Origin: Escherichia coli
GTDB lineage: Bacteria; Pseudomonadota; Gammaproteobacteria; Enterobacterales; Enterobacteriaceae
Strand: one strand, 5' to 3'
Length of the DNA stretch: 571 nucleotides
Assembly (NCBI RefSeq): GCF_003334385.1
Contig: NZ_QOWN01000165.1
Shown here piece by piece: positions 1 through 471 of the stretch. The position numbers were made by a program, and so were the translations under genes. How positions within the stretch are numbered: the stretch's first letter is position 1; the number at the start of each line of letters is the position of its first letter. Under the pieces are notes generated by a model. The model was not told the origin of the DNA. It searched no databases and was given only the letters and a program-made list of their open reading frames with translations.

Positions 1-471
1 TGGTGGCTGGTCTGCCGGGGGACGATTCATAAGTTCCGCTGTGTGCCGCATCTCACCGGGCGGCGCTTTGAGCACGGTGTGACGGACTGTTACACACTGT
101 TCCGGGATGCTTATCATCTGGCGGGGATTGAGATGCCGGACTTTCATCGTGAGGATGACTGGTGGCGTAACGGCCAGAATCTCTATCTGGATAATCTGGA
201 GGCGACGGGGCTGTATCAGGTGCCGTTGTCAGCGGCACAGCCGGGCGATGTGCTGCTGTGCTGTTTTGGTTCATCGGTGCCGAATCACGCCGCAATTTAC
301 TGCGGCGACGGCGAGCTGCTGCACCATATTCCTGAACAACTGAGCAAACGAGAGAGGTACACCGACAAATGGCAGCGACGCACACACTCCCTCTGGCGTC
401 ACCGGGCATGGCGCGCATCTGCCTTTACGGGGATTTACAACGATTTGGTCGCCGCATCGACCTTCGTGTGA
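1..471 (+). CDS. K: Tail tip assembly protein K-like, 5'-partial: C-terminal NlpC/P60 peptidase domain preceded by the end of the N-terminal (JAB/MPN-type) domain. The true start lies upstream of the window.
   Basis: Frame +1 is open from position 1 with no stop until TGA at 469..471; the ORF-track start at 43 is only the first in-frame GTG. Translation from position 1 reads WWLVCRGTIHKFRC, then VPHLTGRRFEHGVTDCYTLFRDAYHLAGIEMPDFHREDDWW...SSVPNHAAIYCGDGELLHH...AASTFV. This matches my recollection of the C-terminal ~156 residues of phage lambda protein K. NlpC/P60 hallmarks are present: catalytic Cys in the D-C-Y motif (codon 88..90) and a conserved His in VPNHAAIY (codon 286..288), followed by a His-His pair. 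Identity call is from memory, not a database search. Confidence 0.92.
   Translation, partial: WWLVCRGTIHKFRCVPHLTGRRFEHGVTDCYTLFRDAYHLAGIEMPDFHREDDWWRNGQNLYLDNLEATGLYQVPLSAAQPGDVLLCCFGSSVPNHAAIYCGDGELLHHIPEQLSKRERYTDKWQRRTHSLWRHRAWRASAFTGIYNDLVAASTFV
351..357 (+). promoter_or_regulatory. Probable Shine-Dalgarno element for gene I, embedded in the K coding sequence
   Basis: Purine-rich AGAGAGG at 351..357, with the GAGG core ending 11 nt upstream of the I start codon at 369. The spacing is at the long end of the usual range, and the site must also encode K residues (KRER region), so it is constrained by both functions. Confidence 0.4.

Follow-up and report, generated by a model that had tools for sequence, protein, structure and literature searches.

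Gene K of bacteriophage lambda lies between gene L and genes I and J, and the literature would make its product, gpK, a non-structural tail-tip assembly factor that is required for assembly. gpK is absent from virions by mass spectrometry and cryo-EM (PMC10721106, PMC12617516), and only residues 135–223 of gpI, the product of the overlapping next gene, are resolved in the virion (PMC10721106). The gene and its JAB + NlpC/P60 domain architecture are already known, having been described since 2003–2006, with the architecture described for the TAPK proteins by Iyer, Burroughs, and Aravind, who predicted that a conserved glycine is the site at which the ubiquitin-like N-terminal domain of gpI is processed by the JAB domain and perhaps also by the NlpC/P60 domain (PMC1779556).

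The two domains also have relatives outside phage tails. The JAMM/MPN+ isopeptidases (Pyrococcus JAMM1, Rpn11, CSN5, and AfJAMM) have a complete catalytic motif in common with the 247-aa form of K discussed below, although the identity is only ~20%, the JAB domain of gpK is fused to an NlpC/P60 domain, and both the activity and the zinc binding of gpK are predicted ones. With Escherichia coli MepS/Spr (MEROPS C40), gpK shares a like Cys-His-His arrangement, a Pfam NLPC_P60 match at E ~1e-13, and a match by Foldseek. As K is an intracellular assembly factor that is absent from virions, the latter likeness does not imply a cell-wall substrate.

The stretch analyzed here, which we call the window, comprises 571 nt of DNA from E. 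coli. All residues of K that it encodes are 100% identical to those of lambda gpK (AAA96551 / NP_040598 / TIPK_LAMBD), and the gene order is the same as in lambda: gene I starts within the window at position 369, and gene L, of which the window stops short, lies immediately upstream of K in all relatives. The same two domains, the L-K-I-J neighborhood, and an adjacent ubiquitin-like protein (TAPI) are found with TAPK. Where the window and the lambda entry part company is in the length of the protein, since the entry has 199 aa whereas the window's nearest relatives, and most re-sequencings of lambda, support 48 more residues at the N-terminus. The features considered in this work are as follows.

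1..471, + strand: 3' part of gene K, codons 92–247 of the 247-aa form (44–199 of the legacy 199-aa form), with the TGA stop at 469..471
1..39, + strand: last beta-hairpin of the JAB/MPN (Prok-JAB) domain, residues 92–104 (Pfam; AF2 strands 92–96 and 99–103)
43..45, + strand: GTG, read as Val106, which falls in the linker that joins JAB to NlpC/P60, and as an artefactual ORF start, the upstream codons being conserved and coding
58..399, + strand: NlpC/P60 (C40 peptidase) domain, residues 111–224 (Pfam NLPC_P60, E = 2e-13; Foldseek)
88..90, 286..288, and 322..324, + strand: candidate triad Cys121, His187, and His199, invariant in 10 homologues
369..571, + strand (frame +3): 5' part of gene I, ubiquitin-like N-terminal domain (lambda I, 14773..15444)
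276, + strand: SNP, G where reference lambda has A, synonymous in K (Ser183, TCA to TCG) and common to wild prophages and PhiR30_1
517, + strand: SNP, T where lambda and the three closest aligned records have C, changing Ala50 of gpI to Val

We consider it highly probable that the GTG at position 43 is an edge artefact, that K has 247 aa and begins at an ATG 273 nt upstream of the window, and that the familiar 199-aa length stems from a one-base discrepancy in the lambda reference J02459. Window bases 1..45 would then be codons 92–106 of a two-domain, 247-aa, lambda-type tail tip assembly protein K.

The list of open reading frames for the window has an entry at 43..471 with a GTG start and 142 aa, which the initial annotation had taken to be a truncated view of K. 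The codons of frame +1 over 1..45 are tgg tgg ctg gtc tgc cgg ggg acg att cat aag ttc cgc tgt GTG, and, as that annotation had claimed, 1..42 is free of stop codons, translating to WWLVCRGTIHKFRC, which is followed by Val (GTG) at 43..45. The openness of these 14 codons is in itself little evidence (P ~0.6 at the base composition of the window); the real evidence is the identity to lambda K, which the initial annotation had named and which alignment bears out over bases 1..45. The 14 residues WWLVCRGTIHKFRC correspond to codons 44–57 of 199-aa lambda K, or 92–105 of the 247-aa form, and 156/156 of the K residues encoded in the window match lambda K, as well as the 247-aa K of PhiR30_1 and of the RM9872 prophage. 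At the nucleotide level, 569 of the 571 bases are identical to lambda (J02459 14405..14975), the exceptions being the 2 SNPs listed above, and 570 of 571 are identical to several prophages and to phage PhiR30_1, with bases 1..275 the same among the window, lambda, and the close prophages/PhiR30_1. Furthermore, in relatives of ~87% identity, changes within 1..45 are confined to third codon positions or to one whole-codon swap (T99 to E/D), as expected of coding sequence in frame +1.

GTG43 would look like a start since K is cut by the window and the program that lists ORFs begins at whichever ATG, GTG, or TTG comes first past the edge; the entry at 43..471 arises in this way, as the frame has no stop up to the window edge and GTG43 is the first such codon in it. 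No Shine–Dalgarno-like sequence precedes it in the upstream bases cataagttccgctgtGTG, and the exact 142-aa product is recorded on only two contigs, each of ≤959 nt, which points to calls made at contig edges. In dismissing the start at 43 as an artefact, the initial annotation is thus upheld by the missing Shine–Dalgarno sequence, the conserved upstream codons, and the two short contigs. Read against its relatives, GTG43 is an internal codon of K, that for Val106, and is a start only through the cut at the window edge. ORF starts that lie beside a window or contig edge are untrustworthy in general, and the same 142-aa artefact has entered public data through these two contigs. We also considered an RNA or regulatory reading of bases 1..45, and rejected it on the grounds that this segment has no Rfam match at E ≤1 and no terminator, and that a sigma-70-like match is near chance. 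The match in question is a weak one at 89..117 on the + strand, inside K (GTTACA, a 17-nt spacer, and TATCAT; 9/12), with 0.2 expected by chance. On the – strand, an antisense ORF of 121 aa extends over 53..418, within the coding sequence of K; this and the other antisense ORFs are probably shadow ORFs of a G+C-rich coding region.

The interpretation given in the initial annotation is partly supported once the sequence upstream of the window is taken into account. The frame of K does go on upstream, being open for 273 nt to an ATG in those relatives that carry one G more than the reference (+G; described below), and an in-frame stop just upstream, which had been named as the observation that would count against it, is absent from every related sequence examined, with the nearest such stop located 150 nt upstream in J02459 and at least 297 nt upstream in the +G relatives. 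In contrast, the length of ~199 aa that it proposed is that of the legacy lambda annotation, itself truncated, and is thus a figure inherited from the reference's error, whereas the relatives support 247 aa. Likewise, extension by ~130 nt, as it recommended in order to locate the start and ribosome-binding site, reaches the legacy ATG at 14276 with a plausible GGAGG, and the start is mis-called again.

The true start of K would instead be an ATG that precedes window position 1 by 273 nt and follows the stop codon of L by 5 nt, a spacing that would be suited to translational coupling, and the closest relatives of the window annotate a 247-aa K that begins at exactly this distance from L. We compared K with three relatives of ~87% identity, and obtained pN/pS values of 0.11–0.19 for codons 1–48, as in the rest of K, which indicates that these codons are under purifying selection; in relatives of the same identity, the codon of the legacy Met49 is ATC or ATT (Ile). 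A tblastn search with the 247-aa K matched 1760 phage records, with coverage of 80% or more of the protein in 1720 of them, and the alignments start at residues 1–8 in nearly all of 50 records sampled across the ranking. The K homologues of T1, HK140, Oslo, KP36, Burkholderia, and Pseudomonas are 236–260 aa long, and distant homologues start at the stop codon of the L homologue or no more than ~20 nt from it. Among exact proteins in the databases, the 247-aa form is found on at least 1000 contigs, compared to 194 for the 199-aa form and 2 for the 142-aa form. The calculated masses are ~28.3 kDa for the 247-aa form, whose N-terminus reads MTQTESAIL, and ~23.0 kDa for the 199-aa form, which begins MSPEDW. 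Finally, 16 of the 18 IMG/VR contigs that carry the T517 variant of the window encode a K of 247 aa that begins at the same conserved Met, with one of the other two being cut by the contig end and one frameshifted. For the window itself, the 247-aa start is most probably correct, judging from relatives that are at least one base different: the window has G276 like wild prophages and unlike reference lambda, such that 247 aa is most probably also the length of K in its own genome. The 247-aa model predicts for that genome ATGACACAGACAGAA at –273 and ccggaggcGtatttcc ~140 nt upstream of the window.

The origin of the shorter form can be traced to a single base. J02459 is without one G after 14266, reading ccggaggc-tatttcc where other sequences have ccggaggcGtatttcc, ~140 nt upstream of window position 1. 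J02459 and NC_001416 annotate K at 14276..14875, as a protein of 199 aa, leaving 148 nt apparently non-coding after gene L. ATG 14276 is the first start in J02459 because the missing G breaks the frame, and the reference (–G) has an in-frame TGA 21 nt before this ATG. +G sequences have no stop in this frame as far back as the ATG equivalent to 14133, the in-frame stop being 24 nt farther upstream, and the frame thus runs 144 nt beyond the legacy ATG. We searched for the two versions with two short queries centered on the indel (a –G 40-mer and a +G 41-mer), to which only exact words spanning the indel could match, and obtained the following distribution.

–G version: 4 phage records (J02459, NC_001416, OR474059, and OR974322); 0 of 5426 complete E. 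coli genomes
+G version: at least 44 phage records; 2251 E. coli genomes (3014 places)

The +G phage records include LC730321, KT232076, PV340536, OM418625-7, imm21, imm434, h434 imm21, DN1, and the DE3 prophage of BL21(DE3). LC730321, a re-sequenced lambda, is also without G138 of J02459, a difference that cancels the +G at 14266 and so leaves legacy coordinates downstream of 14267 unchanged; compensating one-base differences likewise account for the fact that lambda imm434 and DE3 keep the legacy K coordinates despite the open upstream ORF. Both changes, that is, the absence of G138 and the +G after 14266, are visible when LC730321 is compared to J02459, and a commercial supplier of lambda DNA gives the corrections “delete G138, insert G after 14266”. 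Among the papers searched for the discrepancy at 14266, none was found that discusses the missing G. OR974322, a lambda “isolate” from chicken cloacal swabs, has both reference-specific states, –G and G138, which suggests that it is a reference-derived sequence. Programmed frameshifting at the indel site was considered and rejected, as the –G version is confined to reference-type records. From these comparisons, the 199-aa K appears to be a legacy of the 1982 reference, as either an error or a stock-specific change. The textbook gpK of 199 aa, which RefSeq and UniProt still use and newer lambda records have taken over, would then stem from this one-base discrepancy, and it loses the first 48 residues, including the predicted catalytic glutamate of the JAMM site.

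Taking these comparisons into account, it is nevertheless worth asking whether K might be a 199-aa protein after all, translated from lambda ATG 14276, which lies 129 nt before the window, by means of its own ribosome-binding site. This form is annotated in J02459, NC_001416, lambda imm434, DE3, and OR974322 and is still that of RefSeq and UniProt (TIPK_LAMBD), its exact protein occurs on the 194 contigs mentioned above, and the GGAGG upstream of ATG 14276 is annotated as a ribosome-binding site in OM418626. We consider this unlikely, however, as ATG 14276 becomes the first start through the missing G alone, a state seen in four phage records and in none of the 5426 E. coli genomes, while the frame continues for 144 nt upstream of it in +G sequences; as its Met49 is Ile in close relatives; as the distant homologues are all of 236–260 aa; and as a 199-aa K omits codons 1–48, which are under purifying selection, and with them the invariant JAMM Glu19 and the most confidently modeled part of the fold, leaving half of the Pfam JAB model only. 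The GGAGG lies 10–11 nt before Met49 in lambda-type sequences, and some internal initiation is therefore possible, such that K could yield the 247-aa protein together with an internally initiated 199-aa form that begins at Met49 and is without Glu19, or, alternatively, the –G stock could make the short form only and still assemble tails. We regard this combination as very unlikely; if it were true that a –G stock with short K assembles tails, JAB catalysis would be dispensable for tail-tip assembly.

A related possibility is that the missing G is a real mutation of the stock that was sequenced, in which case that strain would make K as a pair of polypeptides, in its short form only, or through +1/–1 recoding as in lambda G/GT. 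The existence of two further –G records (OR474059 and OR974322), and of a known stf frameshift in lambda laboratory stocks, would be in line with such a mutation, but every independently sequenced lambda derivative examined is +G (LC730321, KT232076, PV340536, imm21, imm434, h434 imm21, DE3, and DN1), OR974322 also has G138 and so looks reference-derived, and reading the indel site ccggaggctatttcc by eye, we noticed no slippery motif. We give this reading hardly any credence, and a stock mutation would in any case be irrelevant to the window, which, with G276, is not reference lambda. The suggestion that GTG43 is the genuine start of a stand-alone, 142-aa NlpC/P60 peptidase is close to refuted, and is the one to which we would assign the least weight. 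It draws on phrog_2552, a family of 142-aa proteins that is colinear with the 43..471 ORF and that exists alongside the JAB-half families phrog_2635 and phrog_7305, and on the NlpC/P60-only versions of TAPK found in some prophages (PMC1779556). Apart from the absence of a Shine–Dalgarno sequence and the restriction of the product to two contigs of ≤959 nt, the 14 codons that precede GTG43 are identical to K, conserved, and part of the JAB fold. Furthermore, split K genes arise by frameshift, as in the IMG/VR contig L036 described below, and Iyer et al. themselves suggest that the NlpC-only forms are degenerate (PMC1779556).

The 247-aa reading of K, which we prefer over the above alternatives, is also the one that contains two whole domains. 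Pfam matches Prok-JAB to residues 3–104 of the 247-aa K (51.6 bits, model positions 3–112 of 114) and NLPC_P60 to residues 111–224, while in the 199-aa K the JAB match is reduced to the C-terminal half of the model (positions 63–112 only, 22.5 bits), and NCBIfam shows the same loss of JAB from the shortened K. The 156-aa translation of the window has no JAB match in Pfam, in agreement with the claim of the initial annotation that the JAB/MPN domain lies upstream and is lost when the window is annotated by itself, and its NLPC_P60 match has E = 2.3e-13. The window thus holds the NlpC/P60 domain and the last 13 residues of JAB only, with the two-domain architecture being present in the 247-aa K of relatives that are one base from the window. 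Even the 142-aa piece matches phrog_30 (E = 8e-95). In NCBIfam, K scores 23.9–25.5 bits against TIGR02219 (phage_NlpC_fam), compared to a cut-off of 81.9 bits, and is not a member; on these profile scores, K belongs to the wider NlpC/P60 superfamily and not to the TIGR02219 equivalog.

The JAMM motif E-x(n)-H-S-H-x7-S-x2-D is complete in the 247-aa K (E19, H68, S69, H70, S78, and D81) and is located wholly upstream of the window, with E19 absent from the legacy 199-aa form. We examined invariance in ten full-length K homologues of 29–89% identity, and found E19, H68, S69, H70, S78, D81, C121, H187, and H199 unchanged in 10/10. Two further residues, Gly98 and Trp92 (whose codon opens the window), are likewise invariant across diverse K homologues. 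The AF2 model of the 247-aa K has a mean pLDDT of 80.5, with residues 1–40 the most confident part (pLDDT >90), and places a helix at residues 3–15 and strands at 21–27 and 30–35, the window opening at the strand formed by residues 92–96. Structural comparison by Foldseek relates the N-terminal domain, with its highest-ranking matches, to PfJAMM1 (5ld9/5lda, TM ~0.65 on the target), Rpn11, and CSN5, and the C-terminal domain to MepS, C. difficile Acd33800, and other NlpC/P60 structures, while PDB 2kks matches K residues 7–105 by sequence.

In functional terms, the JAB domain of K, possibly together with its NlpC/P60 domain, would process the ubiquitin-like domain of gpI. The resolution of gpI residues 135–223 only in virions is compatible with such processing by K, which is a published prediction. 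We note that the biological weight of the present findings is small, as this is an ordinary annotation matter that concerns a known gene of a known family. However, where gpK is to be expressed, modeled, or mutated to test the processing of gpI, we would advise use of the 247-aa reading frame.

Genes K and I share 103 nt (369..471), which they read in different frames. The start codon ATG369 and the open frame of I are conserved in relatives, and distant I homologues align from ARICLYGDLQRFG onward. The start of I is annotated inconsistently, either at ATG369 (lambda, 223 aa) or at GTG468 (PGAP, PhiR30_1; 190 aa), the latter of which forms a GTGA overlap with the stop of K; given where the distant homologues begin to align, a start at GTG468 would remove the first strand or strands of the ubiquitin-like domain. 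A further ATG of the I frame, ATG408, is Leu in relatives. On the side of K, residues ~226–247 of the lambda-type protein, which are encoded in the overlap, are mostly without counterpart in distant homologues, and lambda-type K has a C-terminal tail of ~20 residues from this region that the distant TAPK homologues do not have. The pN/pS of K is 0.25–0.45 in the overlap, compared to ~0.15 elsewhere, while the I frame stays conserved.

As regards variation in the window as a whole, T517 is its sole difference from the best database matches, and among 50,697 phage records and 5,426 E. coli genomes, none contains an exact (100%) match to the window. A gapped pattern that requires both SNPs (276 and 517) had no match in the JGI metagenomes. 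A 40-mer with T517 occurs in the 18 IMG/VR contigs referred to above, all of which are 18–60 mismatches from the window, and its restriction to otherwise divergent contigs suggests that the window may have arisen by recombination or may represent a rare variant.

Several database entries bear on how fragments of K are recorded. In L036 (IMGVR_UViG_2534681774_000018), the loss of one nucleotide at the site that corresponds to window position 22 changes GGGGGACG to GGGGGCG and splits K into a JAB-half ORF and an NlpC/P60-half ORF. The PHROG profiles of K fragments have lengths of 135 (phrog_2635), 142 (phrog_2552), and 76 (phrog_7305) positions, and these three families probably collect split pieces of K, with the stand-alone NlpC/P60-half ORFs in databases looking like the products of breaks and contig ends. 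Lambda K is also found under unlikely organisms, as a “C40 family peptidase [Staphylococcus aureus]” and as a partial protein of Bacillus paralicheniformis, and a third record, “Campylobacter phage CJLB-4”, shares 99.7% identity with lambda; all three records are probably due to contamination with lambda DNA or to mislabeling.
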